Origin: a virus
Virus genome (UHGV): UHGV-0092341
DNA length: 31,377 bases
Strand: one strand, 5' to 3'
Shown here: piece after piece, positions 1-31,377 of the stretch
Layout of the letters: each line of letters starts with the position of its first letter
Numbering within the stretch: position 1 is the stretch's first letter
The notes under the pieces: generated by a model
Told to the model about the DNA's origin: nothing
The model's database searches: none
The model's input: the letters and a program-made list of their open reading frames with translations, nothing else
Program-made: the position numbers and the translations under genes

Positions 1-175
1 CTGCCAGCTCTGCCGCGAGGTCACTTTCGCTGCCCTGTCCGTTCAGGTTGCGGGCAGCACTGGCCGCCAGTTCAGCGGCCTCTTCTGTCAGTTTCAGGGC
101 CTGTGCGTCCGGCCCGAAACGCTGCAGGGCCAGACGGTAGAGAGCGGCGCGGGTGTGTACGGTATTCCGTGTCAT
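1..175 (-). CDS. hypothetical early-region protein, N-terminal 58 codons only (gene continues leftwards past window start)
   Basis: Minus-strand ATG at 175-173, open to position 1 (hand translation MTRNTVHTRAALYRLALQRFGPDAQALKLTEEAAELAASAARNLNGQ...). SD-like GAGGG 6 nt upstream. Absent from ORF track because no stop lies in the window. Confidence 0.4.
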   Translation of the reverse strand, partial: MTRNTVHTRAALYRLALQRFGPDAQALKLTEEAAELAASAARNLNGQGSESDLAAELA

Positions 176-184
176 ACCGCGCCC

Positions 185-457
185 TCAGTGCTTCCGGTCA
201 ACAATGATGTGCAGGTCGCCTTCTGCAGTGATTTCCATCCGGTACGGCACCTCGTGCTCTGCCGCGTGGGTGAGTGTGTTCACCAGTATCTGCAGGGCGG
301 CCTCCTTTCCGTTGGTCGCCACAATGGCCTGCGTGGCCATGCTGATTAACGCCGTCAGGGCGCACATGATATCGGTGAGGTCACGGCATTCACACTCGTT
401 GATGTACCGTTCAACAAGGGCGCGGGCGCGCTGATGTGCTTCCTGTGGGGTAATCAT
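185..457 (-). CDS. hypothetical early-region protein (90 aa)
   Basis: ORF in track; start overlaps stop of upstream gene (454-457, coupling); same strand as early operon. Confidence 0.5.
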   Translation of the reverse strand: MITPQEAHQRARALVERYINECECRDLTDIMCALTALISMATQAIVATNGKEAALQILVNTLTHAAEHEVPYRMEITAEGDLHIIVDRKH

Positions 458-648
458 TGCGCGTCCTCCCTGTCCGGGCGTGAGAACTCCATAACGGGCA
501 CATCTGCCGAAAAATGCTGGCTGCAGTACGGGCAGACCAGGGTGACGCGCACTGACGGTACGTGGTACTTACCGGACATCACGGCGACGGCGCTGTGAAA
601 ACGCAGGGTTGTAATATCTCTTTCGCACTGAATACATTTAAATATCAT
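454..648 (-). CDS. small CxxC...CxxC zinc-ribbon-like protein (64 aa)
   Basis: Two Cys pairs (CIQC, CPYC); strong SD GAGGAG 7 nt upstream of ATG at 648. Confidence 0.55.
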   Translation of the reverse strand: MIFKCIQCERDITTLRFHSAVAVMSGKYHVPSVRVTLVCPYCSQHFSADVPVMEFSRPDREDAQ

Positions 649-745
649 GATTTAATTCTCCTCTGTTTCCGGCGTGCAGAAGCCCACGGCGCTGACGCCG
701 GAATAAAAAAGAAAATGTTTTTATTAAATAATTAACGTGGTGTGT

Positions 746-1276
746 TTACTGCACATCCTGCTCAAAAGGAATTATTGAAAAATCCTCAATATCACTTTTT
801 ATGGTAATACCGGGAATATTTTTCACGGCGTCCTTTTCATTCAGGATAGCGTCTTTATTTATTTCCTCTTTTACACGAATAAAGCGCTCAAGCCCCAGAC
901 GTCTCAGTAGTTCAATAACATTATCCGCTCCGCGAATGCTGACTGACGGCGGGCGGTTTCGCCACTGCACCTCGCCGGTGGTGAGGTTAGCAAACTTCAC
1001 CTTCCCGTTGCCGGTCAGTTCATCACGGTGTGCCTCACACCATGTCTGGATACCGGACTGCAGTTCGGCCATGCGTTTTTTCAGGCTCTCGGTGAGCGGG
1101 GCATAACGTGCAGTGATGTCGCCAATGGTGTCATTCATTTCTGTTTCAGCCCTGACCAGTTCACGTTGTGCGTCACCGAGCAGTCTGATGCCCTCAATGA
1201 CCTCTTCGCGTGTCCCTGGTACCCAGAGTGCCGCTGCGGACTTGATACGTTTTGCCCCTTTTGTACTTTTTGCCAT
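746..1276 (-). CDS. gam: Gam-like host-nuclease inhibitor / DNA-end-binding protein (Mu Gam family)
   Basis: 176 aa; N-terminal MAKSTKGAKRIKSAAA and C-terminal GITIKSDIEDFSIIPFEQ closely match my recollection of Mu Gam; sits downstream of B as in Mu. Confidence 0.85.
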   Translation of the reverse strand: MAKSTKGAKRIKSAAALWVPGTREEVIEGIRLLGDAQRELVRAETEMNDTIGDITARYAPLTESLKKRMAELQSGIQTWCEAHRDELTGNGKVKFANLTTGEVQWRNRPPSVSIRGADNVIELLRRLGLERFIRVKEEINKDAILNEKDAVKNIPGITIKSDIEDFSIIPFEQDVQ

Positions 1277-1303
1277 ATCTTATGATTTCTCCAGTTGTGC
1301 TGA

Positions 1304-1573
1304 TTACCACAAAGATTCCGGCCACACGACGCGACAGCCGTGCAGTTCGAAAACGCCCTGACGGAAATATCCCCTGTGGTCATGTCCGGTATACAGATAA
1401 CAGGCCTTTCCCTGCTCAAGCATGCGCATGCAATGCGCACTCCGGGAAACGCGGATGACAGGTTTGTTACCCCTGATGGTGATGCTCTGTATATCCGTAT
1501 TCGTCGCCTTAAGTGCCATAATGGCTGACTGCACTTTGTTAATCTGCTGGCTGATAACTGTGGTGGATTTCAT
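1304..1573 (-). CDS. hypothetical early protein (89 aa), semi-essential-region-like
   Basis: ATG 2 nt after B stop; SD-like AAGGGG upstream; no recognisable motif. Confidence 0.5.
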   Translation of the reverse strand: MKSTTVISQQINKVQSAIMALKATNTDIQSITIRGNKPVIRVSRSAHCMRMLEQGKACYLYTGHDHRGYFRQGVFELHGCRVVWPESLW

Positions 1574-2752: not shown

Positions 2753-4522
2753 TCAGTTGCCGTTAACAATGCTGATAACACTGCTGCGGACCGGCGTGGT
2801 CAGCGTGGCCATGACTTCATCCAGTGCGGCTTCCGGTACGCCGTCCGGGTACTGTGCCGTTAACTGGCGGTAATGTTCCGGCGTCCAGGTAAGGCCGTCG
2901 GCGCTGAACTTATCGCGCAGGGCTTTCGCGGCCTCCACATGAGTCATGGGACGTTGTTCAGTGCGCGGCCCGCGTACGTCAGAGGCCTGACCACGCTTCG
3001 GCATATAGGCCGGAAGTGTGGCGTCATCAATATGTTTATACGGGTCAAGCCGCCCGCCGAACGGCAGCGCCTTCGCCTTGCGTGCGGCGGCTGCATCTGC
3101 GGCGTTGTCTGTACCGGTAACCAGCGCTTCGGTTTCTTTTGCCGCCATCTGTGCCGGGGTTTCCGGCAGGGCTTTGTAACTTTCGCCAAATACCGCCGCG
3201 CCTTCAGCAAAGCCAAACTCGTTCTTTCTGACCTCTTCGACCAGGAAGAACGTCTCGTGGCCGTCCTCACCGGTCAGAACCACCTGTGCCACATCGCTGC
3301 GCCATGGGTTACGGGTAATCATCAGTTTTTCACCAACCAGTACGCCCGGTACCGTTGATACGTCAAATTCAGTGCCCCGGAACGAGACACGAAGTTTTGG
3401 CGTGACTTTGCGGAGTTCTGGTGTCGCCACAGCCAGTTCACGGCATACCTCAACGGAAGGCGCTTTTTTCAGCTGCTCAGCAGTAATCTTCAGCCAGATA
3501 TCCGTGCGGGTTTTACCGTGGCGGCTGTGAACAGCCGTGGCGTTAAAGTGGCTGCGCCATTTCGCGGCCAGCGCGTTGAGTTCTTCCAGACTGTGAACCG
3601 GCCGGAACTTCAGACCCGGCTCCAGCTTGCGTTCGATAATGTCACGCGCCTTTTCCACCTGTCCGGTGGCGCGGGCGTTATGCGGCTTGTGTGCTATCAG
3701 GTCGATGCCCAGTGAGCGGCACATGTTTTTCGTCATACCCGCGGTGTTTGCCGAGCCGGGGTCGAGATAGAGTATTTTCGGCACGCCGTGCAGCACGTCT
3801 GCGCCGCCACGCTCCTGCATGGCGTTGATAAGCACAGAACACAGGTTCTCACCGGATTCCGCACCCGTCACATACTCAACGTAAATCCAGCCGCTGGCAT
3901 GGTCGGTAATCTCGTAACTCCACACGCGGTCACTGGCGATACGGGCAAGGTTAGCGGGCTTGTTCTTGTAGAACTTCGCGCTGTCCATCACCTGCAGTCC
4001 TTTGTGTCCATTACTCAGGTAGTAAAGCGTGCAGAGCGAGGCATCAATCTGCCAGACATGATTGGGATGCAGACTGGCCACTTCAGTATGTGGTGCAGGG
4101 GCATCCAGTTGTTCCGGGTGCAGGCCATAGTTACGCAGGGCTCGGCTGATGGCATCTTCGGACAACGGGAAAAACTCACCGGTGGTTTCATCTGTTCTGC
4201 CTGCGGAGATAAAGCCGTTAGCCCGCAGGGTTTCCACTGCATCCGCGATGGAATAGAGACGCTTACCGTTCTTGCGGGTGGCCTCACGCAGTGTGGCAGA
4301 TATCAGCGCGGCTTCGTCGCGGGTCAGGGCGCTGCGCCCGGCATCGGCGCGTTTTTTGCGTTTATCAGTCACAGAGACCTCCTTCAGCCTGCGCAGCAGA
4401 GTGGCGCGGGACATGCCAAGTTCAGCACAGGCAGCGTCGTATACTGCACCGCGTTTACCATGCCCCGCATTACGTGCCGCGCGGGCTGTTTCAACCAGTT
4501 TTTCAGTCAGTGCCGGGGTCAT
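2753..4522 (-). CDS. DDE transposase (MuA-like, rve/integrase core)
   Basis: 589 aa; HVWQIDAS-type first catalytic Asp region; N-terminal HTH-like segment; paired with B ATPase downstream; SD AGGGAAG upstream. Confidence 0.85.
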   Translation of the reverse strand: MTPALTEKLVETARAARNAGHGKRGAVYDAACAELGMSRATLLRRLKEVSVTDKRKKRADAGRSALTRDEAALISATLREATRKNGKRLYSIADAVETLRANGFISAGRTDETTGEFFPLSEDAISRALRNYGLHPEQLDAPAPHTEVASLHPNHVWQIDASLCTLYYLSNGHKGLQVMDSAKFYKNKPANLARIASDRVWSYEITDHASGWIYVEYVTGAESGENLCSVLINAMQERGGADVLHGVPKILYLDPGSANTAGMTKNMCRSLGIDLIAHKPHNARATGQVEKARDIIERKLEPGLKFRPVHSLEELNALAAKWRSHFNATAVHSRHGKTRTDIWLKITAEQLKKAPSVEVCRELAVATPELRKVTPKLRVSFRGTEFDVSTVPGVLVGEKLMITRNPWRSDVAQVVLTGEDGHETFFLVEEVRKNEFGFAEGAAVFGESYKALPETPAQMAAKETEALVTGTDNAADAAAARKAKALPFGGRLDPYKHIDDATLPAYMPKRGQASDVRGPRTEQRPMTHVEAAKALRDKFSADGLTWTPEHYRQLTAQYPDGVPEAALDEVMATLTTPVRSSVISIVNGN

Positions 4523-6887: not shown

Positions 6888-7652
6888 TCAGAAGTTGCAG
6901 ATTACCAGTTCACGGCGCGGCGTGGGTTTCCCCGCCAGACTGTAGTTGATATTCACCGTCTGTATGTTCAGTTCAGTGAACACCCGACGCATCTGCGGAA
7001 TGTCGTTCACCGAGATAATCATCTTTCCTCTGATGCACCGGGCCAGTTCTGCGAGTAGTGTGTAGTTCTCTTCAGGAAAATCCACACCATAGCCTTCCGT
7101 CCCCAGATAGGGCGGATCACAGTAGAACAGCGTGTGCGGACGGTCATAACGCTTAATGCACTGGTGCCAGTCCATGTGTTCTATCACCGTTCTGGAAAGC
7201 CGCAGGTGTGCCGCTGACAGTTCTTCTTCAATACGTAGCAGATTGAAGCGTGGCGGAGATGTGGTGGAGGTGCCGAAGCTGTGCCCTGCCACCTTGCCAC
7301 CAAATGCCTGCTTCTGGAGGTAGTAGAACCGTGCCGCACGCTGGATATCCGTCAGTGTTTCTTCCGGGGTGATCTGCAGCCATTTGTAGATCTGCCGGCT
7401 GACCAGCGCCCATTTGAACTGGCGGATAAATTCTTCCAGGTGATGTTTTACCACCCGGTACAGATTCACCAGTTCACCATTGATATCGTTAATGACTTCG
7501 AGCTTGCCGGGAGTCTTGAGAAAATAGAGCGCAGCTGCGCCGCAGAACGGCTCCACATAACATTCATGCGCAGGAAACAGCGGCAGGATGTGTTTTCCCA
7601 GGCGGCGTTTGCCACCAATCCATGGAACGATGGGTAATGTCTGCGTTTTCAT
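6888..7652 (-). CDS. Dam-like N6-adenine DNA methyltransferase (D12 class), orphan
   Basis: 254 aa; motif I FCGAAA near N-terminus and motif IV DPPY (FYCDPPYLG) near C-terminus; no adjacent restriction-enzyme-like gene. Confidence 0.8.
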   Translation of the reverse strand: MKTQTLPIVPWIGGKRRLGKHILPLFPAHECYVEPFCGAAALYFLKTPGKLEVINDINGELVNLYRVVKHHLEEFIRQFKWALVSRQIYKWLQITPEETLTDIQRAARFYYLQKQAFGGKVAGHSFGTSTTSPPRFNLLRIEEELSAAHLRLSRTVIEHMDWHQCIKRYDRPHTLFYCDPPYLGTEGYGVDFPEENYTLLAELARCIRGKMIISVNDIPQMRRVFTELNIQTVNINYSLAGKPTPRRELVICNF

Positions 7653-22915: not shown

Positions 22916-25867
22916 ATGTCGGGACAGTTTTCAGTCGGCGTTGTTATCGGCGGGATGATTGGTAGCACATTCCGTTCTGCAATGAGCGGTACCCGCCGTG
23001 CGCTTGATTCCCTGAGCGATACCTCACGCCGCCTGCAGGAACGTCAGAACGCTTTAACCCGTGCAACAGAACGTTATGGTCAACTGGGTTCTTCCCGGAT
23101 GCAGCATCTCAACAGCGAGCTGCTGCGGGTAAGCCGCACCATGGAGCAAATTGAGCGCCAGCAGCGCCGTCTGTCAGCGGCATCCGCTACCAGTGATGCG
23201 CTGAAAGCTAACCGCATGGCGCTGTATGGTCAGGGGATTGAAGCGTATGGCATGGCACAGACTGTTTATCATACGGTTTCCCCTGCCGTTCAGCAGTCCA
23301 TGTCTTTTCAGGACAAAATGATTGATATGTCGATCACCGCAAAATATGACAATAAAACGCGGGATGGACTTGCCGGACAGATAAAAGGCTGGGCGCTTAA
23401 ATACAATCAGTATCAGGATGAGCTGCAGGAGGCGGTGGGTTCACTCATCAGCGACAATATTGATAATGTGTCAGATATCGGTTTTCTGATGCCGGATATT
23501 GCCCGCGCGGCAACGGCAACACGCACGTCTGCTCAGGACTGGGCAAAAGTGGCCGCAGTCTGGCAAAACTCCCTGAAAGGTGCGGCCAGAGATTTTGGTG
23601 CCGTTCAGAATATTATGGCTTATGCCGGTGACCAGGGGTCATTTGAAATCCCGGATCAGGTCAAGTGGATGCAGTCCCTGGCCCCAATGATGGCGGGTAT
23701 TGCCAGTGGAAAAGAGGCTGTTGCTGAAATCGGGGCCAGTCTCCAGATAGCAAAAATCGGTGCAGGTTCCACCGACGAAGCAGCCAATAATTTTAAAAAC
23801 TTTCTTACCAAAATTTTTGCCCGCGATACTCAGAAACAGTTTGCTGATCTGGGTATTGATTTGCAGGGATCTATTGCGAGTTATAAAGCTGCGGGGATCT
23901 CTCCGATTGAAGGGATGTTGAGTGTTATAGAACGTTACCTCAATGCCAAAAGCCCCGAAGCGCTGGCCGGCTTCAAATCAGCCATGAAAATAAAGAATGA
24001 TACGGCAAGAGATGAGGCACTTCAGGCTCTGGCGAAAAACTTTGGTCTGGGCGATATGTTCGCGGATATGCAGGTCATGGCATTTATCCGCCCGATGCTG
24101 GCCAACATGGACAGATATCGAGAGATCCGTGCCGGTGCTCTCAGGGCTGCGGATAACGATTTGCTTGCCAGTGCTTATGATCAGCGGCTGAAATCTCCCC
24201 TTGAAGCCACTAAAACACTTATGGTCAGCAGTCGCGATCTGGCAATTACGCTGGGCGATCAATTAGCTCCATCTTTTATTTCTTTGACTCAGGAACTGCT
24301 TCCACTCATTCAGGGGGCAAAACACTGGGTAGCGACTCACCCGCAATTTGTCAGTGGGGCTTTTAAGCTCATCAGTGCGCTCCTTGCGATTAAGATAGCG
24401 ACTGTTGGTCTCAAACTGGGGCTGAATCTCCTTATTTCCCCCTTTGTAAGTGTCTGGAAAAATGCTGTTTTACTTCGGGCCAACTGGCTTCGTCTGTCGC
24501 TCGCACTGGGGCAAGGCGGTAAGCTCCGCTGGCTGGTGACCGGATTTAGCGCCGTCGCCAGAGGAGCCAGAACACTGAGTGGCGTGCTCTCCGGGGGGCT
24601 GGTTCGCGGAATTATGCTCGCCGGACGTGCTGTTCTCTGGATTGGGCGTGCGCTGATGATGAATCCCATCGGTCTCGTTATCACCGCTGTCGCGGCAGCA
24701 GCTTACCTTATCTACCGCAACTGGGGGGCAGTCAGTGGCTGGTTTAAACAGCGCTGGGCAGACATTCAGGAAGCCTTTAACGGCGGCATTGTGGGAATTG
24801 GTAAGTTACTGATTAACTGGTCGCCGGCAGGCCTGCTCTATAAAGCCTTTGCGGCTGCGCTGAAATATTTCGGCGTTGCTCTGCCGGCAAAGTTCACCGA
24901 CTTCGGTGGCCATCTTATCGACGGTCTGATTAACGGTATCAAAAACAAATGGGGGTCGCTCAAATCCAGTGTAACCGGAATGGGTGACAGCATCAGTAGC
25001 TGGTTTAAACAGTGCTGGGCTGACATTCAGGAAGCCTTTAACGGCGGTATCGCGGGAACTGGTAAGCTGCTGATTAACTGGTCGCCGGCAGGTCTGCTCT
25101 ATAAAGCCTTTGCAGCTGCGCTGAAATATCTTGGTGTTGATCTGCCGGCAAAGTTTACCGACTTCGGTGGCCATCTTGTCGATGGTCTGATTAACGGTAT
25201 CAAAAACAAATGGGAGTCGCTCAAATCCAGTGTAACCGGAATGGGTGACAGCATCAGTGGCTGGTTCAGCGAAAAGCTGGGCATTCATTCGCCGAGCCGC
25301 GTGTTTATGGGCTTTGGTGACAATATCGCGCAGGGGGCCGCCATTGGCCTGCAGCGGACCACTCCGCTTGCAGCTCTGGCCGGGCAGCGAATGGCCAGTG
25401 AACTGCTCCCCAGAATGCCCGTGAGCATCCAGGGGCCAGAAATACGGGATAACACTTCAGGTGTTCGCTTCAGTATGCCGTTGCCCGATATCAACGGGTT
25501 TATGTCGTCTGCTAAAAATGCGATCGGAGCCGTAATCAATAGTTTGTCTTCCATGCCCGTTATTCCGCTCTCCACCCGGGCATCGATTTTACCAGGGCAA
25601 CGTCTGGCAAATGAGATGACACCGGATGTTCCCCGTATCCCCTCGTCTGAAATCCTGGCTGCCGGATATTCAGGCCGTGGTGCAGCTGCAACCGGCGGTG
25701 GAACGTCTGGTGGTATCCAGGTCAGCTTTAATCCTCAGTTTTTCCTCAATGGCAAGGAAACCACAGCGCCTGCAGGACTGACTGGTGCCCTGAATATGAG
25801 TCTGCATGAGCTGGAAAAAATGCTGGAGCGTCTGCTGGCTCAGAAACAACGTAAGGAGTACCGCTGA
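22916..25867 (+). CDS. tail tape measure protein
   Basis: 983 aa, helical N-terminal half, hydrophobic segments, internal tandem repeat; downstream of chaperone pair. Confidence 0.85.
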   Translation: MSGQFSVGVVIGGMIGSTFRSAMSGTRRALDSLSDTSRRLQERQNALTRATERYGQLGSSRMQHLNSELLRVSRTMEQIERQQRRLSAASATSDALKANRMALYGQGIEAYGMAQTVYHTVSPAVQQSMSFQDKMIDMSITAKYDNKTRDGLAGQIKGWALKYNQYQDELQEAVGSLISDNIDNVSDIGFLMPDIARAATATRTSAQDWAKVAAVWQNSLKGAARDFGAVQNIMAYAGDQGSFEIPDQVKWMQSLAPMMAGIASGKEAVAEIGASLQIAKIGAGSTDEAANNFKNFLTKIFARDTQKQFADLGIDLQGSIASYKAAGISPIEGMLSVIERYLNAKSPEALAGFKSAMKIKNDTARDEALQALAKNFGLGDMFADMQVMAFIRPMLANMDRYREIRAGALRAADNDLLASAYDQRLKSPLEATKTLMVSSRDLAITLGDQLAPSFISLTQELLPLIQGAKHWVATHPQFVSGAFKLISALLAIKIATVGLKLGLNLLISPFVSVWKNAVLLRANWLRLSLALGQGGKLRWLVTGFSAVARGARTLSGVLSGGLVRGIMLAGRAVLWIGRALMMNPIGLVITAVAAAAYLIYRNWGAVSGWFKQRWADIQEAFNGGIVGIGKLLINWSPAGLLYKAFAAALKYFGVALPAKFTDFGGHLIDGLINGIKNKWGSLKSSVTGMGDSISSWFKQCWADIQEAFNGGIAGTGKLLINWSPAGLLYKAFAAALKYLGVDLPAKFTDFGGHLVDGLINGIKNKWESLKSSVTGMGDSISGWFSEKLGIHSPSRVFMGFGDNIAQGAAIGLQRTTPLAALAGQRMASELLPRMPVSIQGPEIRDNTSGVRFSMPLPDINGFMSSAKNAIGAVINSLSSMPVIPLSTRASILPGQRLANEMTPDVPRIPSSEILAAGYSGRGAAATGGGTSGGIQVSFNPQFFLNGKETTAPAGLTGALNMSLHELEKMLERLLAQKQRKEYR
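24740..25261 (+). repeat. in-frame tandem duplication inside tape measure gene (2 x 261 bp = 2 x 87 aa)
   Basis: WFKQRWADIQEAFNGG...DSISS and WFKQCWADIQEAFNGG...DSISG are near-identical; second copy starts exactly 261 nt after the first (24740 vs 25001). Confidence 0.85.
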
Positions 25868-26963: not shown

Positions 26964-28120
26964 ACAGCACTGCGCAAGTCACATCAGCGTTAACCGGCGT
27001 CAGCGATGTGCTGACACCGGTGTTCACTCTGTGGTATCTGCAGAAAAACATCACCTCTGATATCGCGCCTTATGTCACCCGTGTGACCTGGAGCGATAAC
27101 ATCAAAAATGAGTCCGATACCATTGAGGTGGAACTGGACGACACCGATGGCCGCTGGCTGGATAAATGGTATCCGGGCAAGGGTGACACGCTGACGCTGA
27201 AAATGGGCTATCAGGGCGAGAAGCTGCTGTCCTGCGGTACGTTCTCTATAGACGAGATCGAAGTGAGTTCGCCCGCTTCCGTTGTTTCTATCCGTGGGGT
27301 GGCCACCTCGGTTAACAGTGCCCTGCGGACTAAAACCAGTCGTGGTTTTGAGAACACCACGCTGGCAGCTGTTGCGGGGCGGATTGCCAGAAAGCACCGA
27401 CTGAAACTGGTGGGCAGCATTGAGTCCATCAGAATCGACCGGGTGACCCAGTATGCTGAAACGGACGTGGGTTTTCTGCGCCGGCTGGCCAGCGAGTATG
27501 GTTATGCAGTGAAAGTGGTCAGTGACCAGCTGATTTTTTCTCATCTGGCCACACTGCGCAGTCAGGAGCCGGTCAGGCAGTTAAAACCGCAGGATGTGGC
27601 CCGCTTTTCCCTGCGTGACACCATCAACCGGGTCTATAAATCTGCAAAGGTAAAACACCAGAAAAGCAGCAGTAAAAAACTGATCGTCTACGAAGCTGAT
27701 GGTGGTACCCGTGAAAGCGACAAACAAACCAAAGGCGGTAAGGTCACCAGTGCCGACTCACTGAAGGTCAACAGCCGCGTCAGCGACCCGGACAGCGCCC
27801 GGATTAAAGCGGATTCGGCGCTGGCCAGGCATAACGAATACCAGCAGAACGGCTCCCTGACGCTGACGGGAACACCTCAACTGACTGCAGGCAACAAAAT
27901 TGAACTGGTGGGTTTTGGACAGTTATCCGGGCCATGGCTGATAACCACTGCCCGCCATGCGTTTGACCGCAACAGCGGCTATATCACCGAACTGGAGGTG
28001 GCGCGAGGGCCGGTCACGCAGGGCAAGGCGAAGAAAGGTAAAAAGACCGGCAAGAGTCAGACACTGACCGTCTATAAACCGGACGGCAGCACATCTACGG
28101 TAACAAAGGAGAAGAAATAA
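26951..28120 (+). CDS. tail/baseplate hub protein (P2 gpD / Mu P-like)
   Basis: 389 aa (P2 gpD is about this size); lysine-rich C-terminal tail; conserved order. Confidence 0.65.
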   Translation: MAEINSTAQVTSALTGVSDVLTPVFTLWYLQKNITSDIAPYVTRVTWSDNIKNESDTIEVELDDTDGRWLDKWYPGKGDTLTLKMGYQGEKLLSCGTFSIDEIEVSSPASVVSIRGVATSVNSALRTKTSRGFENTTLAAVAGRIARKHRLKLVGSIESIRIDRVTQYAETDVGFLRRLASEYGYAVKVVSDQLIFSHLATLRSQEPVRQLKPQDVARFSLRDTINRVYKSAKVKHQKSSSKKLIVYEADGGTRESDKQTKGGKVTSADSLKVNSRVSDPDSARIKADSALARHNEYQQNGSLTLTGTPQLTAGNKIELVGFGQLSGPWLITTARHAFDRNSGYITELEVARGPVTQGKAKKGKKTGKSQTLTVYKPDGSTSTVTKEKK

Positions 28121-28632
28121 TGGCAGGTGTCACCCGTCAGGTCGGTACGGTCAGCGCCGTCGATGCCGACAAGGTTCAGGCCCGCGTTCGTCTGCCTGAG
28201 TGCGATAACCTGCGCACTAACTGGCTTAACGTACTCCAGCGCAACACCCAGGATAACAAGGATTACTGGCTCCCTGACGTGGGGGAGCAGGTTGAGGTGC
28301 TGCTCGATGCCAACGGCGAGGATGGTGTCATTCTGGGCGCGGTGTACTCAGGCGTCGATAAGCCACCGTTCAGCGACAAAAACGTCCGGGGCACGAAATA
28401 CGCGGATGGCGCAGAGTTCAGCTATAACCGCGCGACCCATACGCTGACGGTCAAAGGTGGTATCGAGCGCGTAGTAATCGAGGTTGCGGTAGGTATCAGC
28501 CTGAAGGGGAAAACCATTGATTTGACCGCTGACACCACCACGGTGAACGGCAACCTTGAAATCAACGGCAATGCCCACTCCACAGGTAGCATGCTGTCTG
28601 ACGGCCAGAACTCTAATCACCATTCCCACTGA
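28120..28632 (+). CDS. baseplate central spike (P2 gpV / Mu gp45-like)
   Basis: 170 aa; C-terminal beta-rich segment typical of spike tips; conserved position. Confidence 0.65.
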   Translation: MAGVTRQVGTVSAVDADKVQARVRLPECDNLRTNWLNVLQRNTQDNKDYWLPDVGEQVEVLLDANGEDGVILGAVYSGVDKPPFSDKNVRGTKYADGAEFSYNRATHTLTVKGGIERVVIEVAVGISLKGKTIDLTADTTTVNGNLEINGNAHSTGSMLSDGQNSNHHSH

Positions 28633-28686: not shown

Positions 28687-29034
28687 ATGAAAACAACTTC
28701 CGTATTCTGGCAACCGGCCCTGCAGGCTCCCGGCGAAATTGTCCGGGGGCTGGATGATATCTGGCAGGCGATTCAAATTATCCTGCGAACTCCCCGTGGC
28801 AGCGACCCGCATCGCCCAGAGTTCGGCAGCAATCTGCATCTTTATATCGACTGGCCTGTAAACCGGGCCATTCCTCATGTGGTGCGCGAATCTGTCGATG
28901 CCATCCGGCGCTGGGAGCCTCGCTGCCAGCTTATGTCGGTTAAACCCGCCGTCGACGGCGAACATCTTACGCTCCGGGTGAGCTGGAAAGGCTCTGACGG
29001 ACAGCCCCGGACTCAGGAGTTGCTATGGCGCTGA
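28687..29034 (+). CDS. baseplate wedge protein (GPW/gp25-like)
   Basis: 115 aa; motif RTPRGSDPHRPEFGSNL typical of gp25/GPW family; no SD, start may be leaderless or mis-set. Confidence 0.65.
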   Translation: MKTTSVFWQPALQAPGEIVRGLDDIWQAIQIILRTPRGSDPHRPEFGSNLHLYIDWPVNRAIPHVVRESVDAIRRWEPRCQLMSVKPAVDGEHLTLRVSWKGSDGQPRTQELLWR

Positions 29035-30128
29035 CAGAACCCGATTTTATTGAACGTGATGCCGACAAAATCACGGCTGAAATGATTGCACAGTACGAAG
29101 CCGCAACCGGCAAAACGCTGTACCCCGCTCAGGCTGAGCGCCTGTTGATTGACCTGTGGGCATACCGCGAAATGCTGGTCAGGGTAGCGGCGCAGGAAAT
29201 AGCCAAACAGAATCTGGTCGCCTTTGCCCGTGAGCCGATGATTGATTACCTCGGTGAACTGGTCGGTGTTTACCGCCTTGCCGCGCAGCCTGCCACCACC
29301 ACGCTCCAGTTCTCCGTGGATGAGGCACTGGCCATTGACGTGCTGATTCCGGCGGGTACCCGCGTCAGCGCTTCCGACAGCGTTATTTTTGCCACCGATA
29401 CAGATGTGGTACTGAAGGCCGGATTGCTGCTGGTCAATGTCACGGCCACCTGTACCGAACCCGGTACCGCTGGTAACGGCTGGCAACCTGCGCAGGTCAG
29501 TCAGTTACTCGATGAGATTGATAACGTCGACCTGCTGGTGAGCAATCTGACGGCCAGTTCCGGCGGTTCAGAACAGGAAGACGATGACAGGCTCCGGGAG
29601 CGTATCAGACTGGCCCCGGAGTCATTCACCAATGCCGGAAGCCGTGGCGCATACCGCTTTCATGCCATGCAGGCCCATCCCAACATTGTCGATGTTGCTG
29701 TGCTTTCCCCGGTTCCCGGCACCGTAGATCTGTATCCGCTGCTCAGTACCGGTCTGCCGGACGGCGGTGTTCTCACGCTGGTAGAGAGTTTCTGCTCTGA
29801 TGAGAAAGTCAGGCCGCTCACTGATACCGTGCGGGCTAAAACACCTGTGCAGGTGGATTATGCCATTGAAGCCAGGATTACGATCTATCGTGATCAGGAT
29901 GCCGGGTCTGTAAAAGATGCCGCCAACAGTGCCATCCAGAACTGGGTGGCATCACGTGCCGCCACGCTGGGGCGCGATATTGTCCCCAGCCAGATTATCA
30001 GTGCATTGTCCGTTTCCGGGGTGTACCAGGTTGAGCTGGTGACACCGGCACTGCGGGTGGTGGCAGAAAACGAATGGGCAAACTGTACGGCGATCACACT
30101 TAACATGACCAGGGTGTCCGATGGCTGA
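29025..30128 (+). CDS. baseplate protein J-like (P2 gpJ / Mu gp47-like)
   Basis: 367 aa directly after GPW-like gene; conserved W-J-I order. Confidence 0.7.
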   Translation: MALTEPDFIERDADKITAEMIAQYEAATGKTLYPAQAERLLIDLWAYREMLVRVAAQEIAKQNLVAFAREPMIDYLGELVGVYRLAAQPATTTLQFSVDEALAIDVLIPAGTRVSASDSVIFATDTDVVLKAGLLLVNVTATCTEPGTAGNGWQPAQVSQLLDEIDNVDLLVSNLTASSGGSEQEDDDRLRERIRLAPESFTNAGSRGAYRFHAMQAHPNIVDVAVLSPVPGTVDLYPLLSTGLPDGGVLTLVESFCSDEKVRPLTDTVRAKTPVQVDYAIEARITIYRDQDAGSVKDAANSAIQNWVASRAATLGRDIVPSQIISALSVSGVYQVELVTPALRVVAENEWANCTAITLNMTRVSDG

Positions 30129-30699
30129 GCCGCTACAACTCCCGCCACCGCTTGAGGGGGATATCAGCCTCAGAACGCTGGGAAGACTGGCCGGGCGGCT
30201 GGATAACATCGACCTGAGCGTACTGATGGTCTATCTCGTCGATATCGTCGACAGTTCCGCGCTGCCATGGCTGGGAGAGCAGTTCTCACTGTTCGGCGAT
30301 GGCTGGGAGCTGGCGGAATCGGACGATGTTCGCCGCATGCTTATAAAAGCAGCCATCGAACTACACCAGTATAAAGGGACGCCGTGGTCAATCCGGGAAG
30401 TTATCCGCCGTTTTGGCTTTGGTGAAGTGGATCTGATTGAAGGCACAGGTCGTCTCAGTTACGACGGCAATCGCAGCTATAACGGACTGTTTGTTCATGG
30501 AGATGCAGCCGCCTGGGCGGTTTATCGCGTTATTCTGAAACAGCCCATTACTAACGATCAGGCCGCGATGCTGCGTCAGACGCTCGCTGCATTTGCACCG
30601 GCCCGCTGCCATCTGGCCAGCCTGGAGTATCAGTCTGTGGCTATTCGCTATAACAATACCGCCATCCATGATGGCAGTTATAACCACGGGAGCAGTTGA
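30121..30699 (+). CDS. baseplate/tail protein I-like (P2 gpI / Mu gp48-like)
   Basis: 192 aa; overlaps J-like stop; immediately precedes tail fibre gene. Confidence 0.6.
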   Translation: MAEPLQLPPPLEGDISLRTLGRLAGRLDNIDLSVLMVYLVDIVDSSALPWLGEQFSLFGDGWELAESDDVRRMLIKAAIELHQYKGTPWSIREVIRRFGFGEVDLIEGTGRLSYDGNRSYNGLFVHGDAAAWAVYRVILKQPITNDQAAMLRQTLAAFAPARCHLASLEYQSVAIRYNNTAIHDGSYNHGSS

Positions 30700-30701
30700 T
30701 T

Positions 30702-31377
30702 ATGGGAAACCTGAATGAAACAGAAAAGTGGGAAGAAAATATCTATCAACTGGAGACATCAGATCCGGTTCTGGGTGGTGCTGACGGGATATCAAATCGA
30801 GCCCCCCGGCAACTGGCAAACAGGACGAAATGGCTGAAGAAGAAAACGGAGGAAGCCGCACAGTCACTGGCTGAACACGTGCGTTCCCGTAACCACCCGG
30901 ACGCGACACTGACAGCTAAGGGGTTCACCCAACTGAGCAGTGCCACCAACAGCACCTCTGAAACGCTGGCCGCCACACCAAAAGCCGTCAAGGCTGCATA
31001 CGACCTTGCAGCCGGCAAGGCGCCCGTCAGCCACACTCACCCGTGGAGTCAGATAACGGGAGTGCCTGCTGCCTCGCTGACGGCAAAAGGCACCGTACAA
31101 CTGAGCAGCGCCACGGACAGTCAATCAGAAACTGAGGCTGCCACGCCGAAGGCTGTGAAAATCGCGTATGATCTGGCCCGGGGAAAATACACAGCCCAGG
31201 ATGCAACAACGACCCGTAAAGGGATCGTACAACTGAGCAGTGCCACCAACAGCACCTCTGAAACGCTGGCCGCCACACCAAAGGCCGTCAAGGCTGCATA
31301 TGACCTGGCTGCCGGCAAGGCCCCCGTCAGCCACACTCACCCGTGGAGTCAGATAACGGGAGTGCCTGCTGCCTCGC
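30702..31377 (+). CDS. tail fibre protein, N-terminal 225 codons only (runs off window end)
   Basis: ATG 30702 two nt after gpI-like stop; hand translation MGNLNETEKWEENIYQLETSDPVLGGADGISNRAPRQLANRTKW... followed by ~50-aa repeat units (QLSSATNSTSETLAATPKAVKAAYDLAAGK). Absent from ORF track because no stop in window. Confidence 0.75.
   Translation, partial: MGNLNETEKWEENIYQLETSDPVLGGADGISNRAPRQLANRTKWLKKKTEEAAQSLAEHVRSRNHPDATLTAKGFTQLSSATNSTSETLAATPKAVKAAYDLAAGKAPVSHTHPWSQITGVPAASLTAKGTVQLSSATDSQSETEAATPKAVKIAYDLARGKYTAQDATTTRKGIVQLSSATNSTSETLAATPKAVKAAYDLAAGKAPVSHTHPWSQITGVPAAS
30931..31377 (+). repeat. tail-fibre repeat units (about 150 bp each); units 1 and 3 near-identical, 300 bp apart
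   Basis: 30931-31077 and 31231-31377 differ at only a few positions; a diverged unit lies between them. Confidence 0.8.

Follow-up and report, generated by a model that had tools for sequence, protein, structure and literature searches.

In prophage Phi2 of E. coli ST131 EC958, the tail fibre gene consists of stable 5′ Phage_fibre_2 repeats that are fused to an invertible 3′ region encoding a collar domain, and a DNA invertase gene is adjacent to it (Forde et al., 2014; PMC4134206). Phi2 has one invertible segment of 2067 bp with two sites, and the 5′ and 3′ crossover sites, each of 26 bp, are listed in the same publication (PMC4134206). For phage P1, the GenBank record annotates the repeated elements a0, a1, b1, and b2 in the constant part Sc of gene S, the variable 3′ end of which is inverted with the C segment by the serine invertase Cin. 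The S fibre of phage Mu carries the PF03406 repeat (5yvq, 8ju3), and Mu has the invertible G segment and the invertase Gin. The gpH fibre of phage P2 has two units and no inversion system. In P1, there are two alternative tips, and a separate assembly gene belongs to each of them. The Min system of plasmid p15B has six sites and forms many isomers. Sandmeier et al. reportedly described in 1990 that the more than two clustered crossover sites of Min give rise to several fibre 3′ ends. Here, we describe a repeat-containing fibre gene at the end of a viral genome; the feature is genuine, and it is of an ordinary, previously described kind.

The window (the whole stretch of DNA that was analysed, 31,377 nt of UHGV virus genome UHGV-0092341) ends inside an open reading frame on the plus strand. 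According to the ORF listing of the window, its ATG at 30702 lies three bases past the stop codon of gpI, and it stays open to the last base (30702..31377, 225 codons without a stop codon), so that the gene is truncated at the window end, as had been proposed in the preliminary description. The 225 aa contain three matches to Pfam family PF03406 (Phage_fiber_2; E 8.6e-60, 198.5 bits versus a cut-off of 22), and the repeats are 79% identical to P2 gpH over 89 aa. In combination with the adjoining genes gpJ and gpI, these matches substantiate the earlier assignment to a tail fibre whose repeats are of a recognisable type. What the window contains from 30702 onwards is the front part of a tail fibre gene of the PF03406-repeat type that is also represented by P2 H, Mu S, and P1 S. 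E. coli FDAARGOS_1267 has a counterpart encoding 530 aa, from which these 676 nt differ at three positions.

The genes upstream of the fibre gene have the P2-type order, with gpU and a tape-measure protein of 983 aa first, followed by gpD, gpV (28120-28632, Pfam Phage_base_V), gpW (28687-29034, GPW_gp25), gpJ (29025-30128, Baseplate_J), and gpI (30121-30699, Tail_P2_I), all four of the latter on the plus strand. The fibre gene thus directly follows the baseplate genes gpJ and gpI, and the arrangement in P2 is the same. The N-terminal part of the fibre (aa 1-72, 30702..30917, plus strand) is free of repeats and did not match any family in a Pfam search. From its position in the gene, it is presumed to be the end that attaches to the baseplate. 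Residues 1-146 match a Pseudomonas phage fibre and residues 1-44 a Paracoccus phage fibre, and the similarity to P2 gpH begins only at residue 56.

The source element is a BcepMu-like (Bcepmuvirus-type) transposable prophage of E. coli. The minus strand encodes Gam (746-1276, Mu Gam), a MuB-like AAA+ ATPase (1576-2781, AAA_22), an rve transposase (2753-4522), and, also in the early region, a Dam-like D12-class N6-adenine DNA methyltransferase (6888-7652). The plus strand encodes Mu gp27, the terminase, Portal_Mu, Mu F, sheath, tube, and the P2-type tail genes. The early genes are therefore located on the strand opposite to the late genes, as in the BcepMu layout. Escherichia phage PhiKM, whose taxonomy line reads Bcepmuvirus, is 96% identical over 96% of window 29000-31377. 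The chromosomal flanks of related prophages include mdfA, yfcO/smrB, aroA, yfaL, ssuB, otsB, irp2, and others, and such a diversity of insertion sites is expected for a transposing phage. At a coverage of at least 80%, window 29000-31377 was found in 586 of 5426 complete E. coli genomes, that is, in about one in nine. The window starts within the early region, in a small ORF beyond gam, and about 2.4 kb of the prophage end are absent from it; in a relative, GemA and Mor are encoded there. Window positions 1-1500 differ by about 10% from the genome that is closest in the tail region. Because the first 1.5 kb diverge while the tail region is identical, the prophage is mosaic with respect to its early and late modules, and the distal fibre end of the source prophage could differ from that of its relatives.

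A direct-repeat search revealed a repeat of 182 nt (30896-31077 versus 31196-31377) with 90% identity and a spacing of 300 nt. In its core (30931-31077 versus 31231-31377), 142 of 147 nt are identical (96.6%), and the unit between the two copies is diverged (65-74% nucleotide identity of 31086-31177 to the neighbouring units), which confirms the near-identical units of about 147 bp, 300 bp apart, that had been noticed from the letters alone; the core identity begins one base earlier than first noted (30930/31230). The five differences are located at 30983, 31001, 31007, 31010, and 31022, and every one of them is a synonymous third position, so that residues 77-125 are identical to residues 177-225. 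When the repeat region was shuffled 300 times by codon and 300 times by base, the best ungapped self-matches over 147 nt reached at most 68 and at most 71 matches, respectively, versus the 142 observed. No further copy of the 147-nt repeat was found elsewhere in the window on either strand. Tandem Repeats Finder did not report any repeat in 30000-31377, since there are only about two copies and these are interspersed, with a period of 300 and sub-units of unequal size. A scan of the whole window with Rfam at gathering thresholds gave no match.

The registers of the repeat family (30918 / 31086 / 31218) divide the array into units of two sizes, all on the plus strand. Long unit 1 (30918..31085, 168 nt, 56 aa) consists of a PF03406 repeat, the Pfam stretch of which covers residues 69-107, plus a GKAPVSHTHPWSQITGVPAASLTAK tail. 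It is followed by the short diverged unit (31086..31217, 132 nt, 44 aa) with one PF03406 repeat and by long unit 2 (31218..31377), which is cut by the window end 8 nt before the end of the unit. The true period is therefore a super-unit of 300 nt, composed of a long unit of 168 nt and a short unit of 132 nt with one PF03406 repeat each. In relatives, long unit 2 is followed by a further long-tailed unit and then by the terminal unit, and their fibres have five or seven PF03406 stretches. The complete genomes that were checked at the nucleotide level have the identical long-short-long order, and their long units differ at the same five positions; therefore, the repeat is not an artefact of a contig end. 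As the five differing positions are shared by several lineages, the duplication is old and its copies have not been continuously homogenised.

The end of the window deserves separate consideration. Its last 55 nt (31323..31377, plus strand) are an exact copy of 31023-31077, the shared suffix begins right after the variant base 31322/31022, and a core of 58 nt that includes this terminal stretch occurs three times in the fibre gene of relatives. The terminal 55 nt, the first 55-mer with an exact second copy, are thus a probable break point of the assembly. The most likely reason for the end of the window is a short-read assembly that broke at the repeats, and a k-mer of 55 would fit this. The best 120 database cluster representatives are all 224-393 aa long and nearly all labelled 'partial', whereas none of the complete fibres analysed here is shorter than 415 aa. 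Truncation inside these fibre repeats is found in clusters of 229, 481, and 137 sequences. The practical weight of the repeats lies here, since the gene is present in about one ninth of the complete E. coli genomes and is cut at the repeats in nearly all draft assemblies. Windows that end in these repeats should be treated as assembly breaks rather than as biology.

Compared with the relatives of its lineage, the window has three specific bases (31022 G, 31081 C, and 31109 C), the only three in about 6.7 kb. All of them lie in the repeat array within 88 nt, and each is the base that is found in another repeat copy of these relatives. They reflect either an assembler consensus or an exchange between the repeats, by gene conversion or patchy recombination. 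Among the complete RefSeq genomes of E. coli, the best match to window 30850-31377 (528 nt) is 99.4% identical, and none reaches 100%. It could be argued from these bases, from the missing perfect match, and from the termination of the window exactly in the 55-nt exact repeat that the second copy itself is an assembly artefact, namely a spurious duplication or the consensus of a collapsed repeat at the contig end. However, complete genomes share both the long-short-long order and the five differing positions, and G/C/C at 31022/31081/31109 is the normal first-junction state in other lineages, so that the repeat is real even if single bases of the window may be consensus errors. An artefactual origin of the second copy is therefore highly unlikely.

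The window itself contains no crossover site, tip, tfa gene, or invertase, and the distal region was read from relatives. A search of the window for Gin-type crossover sites (AAACCNNGGTTT-like, at most one mismatch) yielded none. As close relatives, we used 11 loci (L001 and L007-L016) in which the 6 kb preceding the fibre gene differ from the window by 0-4 mismatches; in seven of them, these 6 kb are identical to the window. The preliminary description had placed the receptor-binding end and any invertible segment beyond the window and had proposed to look rightward for inverted repeats, an invertase gene, and alternative C-termini; all of these were found in 11 of the 11 relatives, and none of them has a single ordinary fibre without further repeats or inversion. 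All 11 have five-unit fibres of 526-543 aa, in which two more repeat units are followed by a linker, a 26-bp crossover site, a collar domain (PF07484), and a variable tip. Past the tip, all 11 carry inverted alternative fragments of collar plus tip, one tfa gene, and the gene for a serine invertase of 190 aa. The crossover site is TCCTCAATTACC TT GGTTTAGGAGAA, encodes ...VLNYLGLGE, and has partner sites in inverted orientation. The variable tip resembles the tip of T4 gp37 (2xgf, E 1e-13), the tail fibre assembly gene matches Caudo_TAP, and the invertase contains PF00239 (Resolvase) and PF02796 (HTH_7) and matches Mu Gin over 181 aa (E 2e-93). With NCBIfam, the fibre, tfa, and invertase of the relatives had no useful family, all hits being well under the cut-offs.

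In the lineage of the window, three crossover sites bound two segments, X (1615 bp) and Y (514 bp). All four arrangements (X+Y+, X-Y+, Y-X-, and Y-X+) are present among the close relatives, with segment identities of 99.4-100%; the Y- orientation of L008 was deduced rather than aligned because its copy of Y has a 1-nt deletion. The right half-sites swap between the isomers around the central TT, as inversion predicts. All three fibre fusions encode uninterrupted in-frame proteins of 530, 543, and 540 aa. In L001 (11302-12870) and L007-L016, there are three alternative tips and a single tfa gene, which is co-oriented with tip b. In two isomers, X+Y+ and Y-X+, the tfa gene downstream of the expressed fibre is in antisense orientation, which raises a folding question for tips a and c. 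The number of crossover sites per locus varies from two to four among the relatives: L009 and L006 have two sites and L002 has four, resulting in one, two, or three invertible segments depending on the lineage. Occasional deletion between sites of the same orientation or the acquisition of extra cassettes could account for these differences.

With the crossover sites in hand, the proximal repeats can be compared with them directly. One might take the repeats for the recombination sites of the inversion system itself, given that the crossover site of the relatives is part of this gene as well. Yet they are direct rather than inverted and have no opposite-strand copy in the window, and the crossover sites of the relatives are separate 26-bp sequences, located 1102 nt or further into the gene, that have nothing in common with the repeats and whose half-sites swap between isomers. 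There is hardly any probability left for a function of the repeats as inversion sites. We regard it as very probable that window 30702-31377 is the proximal part of the tail fibre gene of a BcepMu-like E. coli prophage, with a shaft formed by an array of 56-aa and 44-aa units and with distal tips that are switched by an invertase.

The number of units differs between strains. When 30 related loci were compared, the crossover site lay 802, 934, 1102, 1138, 1234, 1402, or 1474 nt from the start codon of the fibre gene, corresponding to 3, 4, 5, 5, 6, 7, and 7 units, respectively. All length differences among the array alleles are sums of 132 and 168 nt, that is, of the lengths of the short and the long unit. 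Frameshifts are present in two further loci (968 and 803 nt), and one database fragment has at least 8 units. The ST131-type loci have three units versus five in the relatives from the lineage of the window.

The gene can thus be understood as follows. A presumed attachment end of about 70 aa is followed by an array of PF03406 units in two sizes, which would form the shaft; the near-identical copies of 147 nt are parts of two long units around one short unit. The length of the units, their common reading frame, and the near-identity of their DNA make the gain and loss of whole units feasible. Unequal homologous crossing-over or slippage between the in-frame units would most likely be the mechanism by which whole units are added or removed, and such events would change the length of the shaft and leave the attachment end and the tip untouched. 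In the relatives, the Gin-family serine invertase swaps collar and tip with the inverted alternatives, which may confer alternative receptor specificities, and the source genome presumably has a downstream region like that of its relatives. The result would be a textbook modular fibre, with a shaft whose length varies by strain and a tip that an invertase can exchange.

It had also been claimed in the preliminary description that the repeats support recombinational shuffling of the host range. The support for this claim is indirect: whole units have been gained and lost, and the repeat module is what the gene has in common with the otherwise unrelated fibres P2 H, P1 S, and Mu S, but in relatives the tip is switched at the separate 26-bp sites. 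A related reading is that the repeats serve chiefly as shared homology for the exchange of distal host-range determinants between phages, rather than for variation of the shaft length. The similarity to P2 gpH, which covers only residues 56-210 at 67-79% identity, would fit such a role, as would the matches of Mu S and P1 S, which also lie in the repeat region. Altogether, 434 phage records match, and the module is common to the fibres of P2, P1, Mu, and lambdoid phages. This is the classical view, and it is compatible with the explanation by shaft length. The EC958 paper cites Sandmeier 1994 on motif rearrangement in fibre evolution (PMC4134206). However, what varies among close relatives is the number of units, whereas their tips change by the action of the invertase at separate sites. 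A predominant role in exchange is therefore possible, albeit somewhat unlikely. Under the preferred reading of the array as a shaft of variable length, one may go further and assume that the number of units (3 to at least 8) is a second recombination-driven axis of adaptive variation beside the invertase switch, which would tune the fibre length to the thickness of the host surface layers, possibly co-adjusted with the length of the tail. We consider this extension rather doubtful. If the length of the shaft were indeed under selection, it would be a second variable in host-range models for these prophages.

A second length polymorphism was observed in the tape-measure gene (22916-25867), which contains an in-frame tandem duplication of 261 bp (87 aa) at 24732-25253 with 93% identity. 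Relatives have one, two, or three copies of this 261-bp unit, three copies resulting in a protein of 1070 aa. The tail length thus probably varies too, judging from the copy number in the tape-measure sequence. At the position of this duplication, the sequence in the PhiKM record is interrupted by a sequencing gap. All six of the six sampled fibres with seven units are accompanied by three tape-measure copies (lineage uncontrolled), and fibre units and tape-measure copies follow a loose positive trend, with the exceptions L029, L035, and L024/L031/L033 (lineage likewise uncontrolled). Co-variation of the two was considered as a finding and set aside because of the clear exceptions and the uncontrolled lineage.

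The annotation of these genes is affected as well, and the fibre gene is sometimes mis-named or split into false pseudogenes. The loci L005/L020, L006/L021, and L022 have intact fibre ORFs of 443, 487, and 415 aa, respectively, which are called 'incomplete' pseudogene fragments by PGAP, and truncated database copies (P0004, P0005, P0007, and others) are named 'short-chain fatty acid transporter, partial' at the source. Both the pseudogene and the transporter labels are annotation errors caused by the repeats.

Among the described systems, Phi2 of EC958 belongs to the same prophage family, and its architecture and crossover sites were published in 2014. The Phi2 sites TCCTCAATTACCTT GGTTTAGGAGAA and GAGAGATAAACGTT GGTTTGGGGGAA are identical to those in the relatives of the window. 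In contrast to the single segment of Phi2, the lineage of the window has three sites and two segments (1615 and 514 bp) with four isomers, as well as five units. In P1, element a1 of gene S has 132 nt, the length of the short unit described here, and the crossover is located at the homologous ...YLGL... position; however, the S protein and the fibre of the window are only 41% identical. Furthermore, the relatives analysed here have three tips and one tfa gene, and P1 is a plasmid prophage and not transposable. Mu is transposable too, but in the present phage the early genes lie opposite to the late strand, the tail genes are P2-like, the units are more numerous, and there are three sites against two. 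With P2, the locus shares the gene order V-W-J-I-H and the repeats, whereas the N-terminus and the tip of gpH are unrelated. Finally, in comparison with p15B Min, the relatives of the window have a smaller set of two to four crossover sites.
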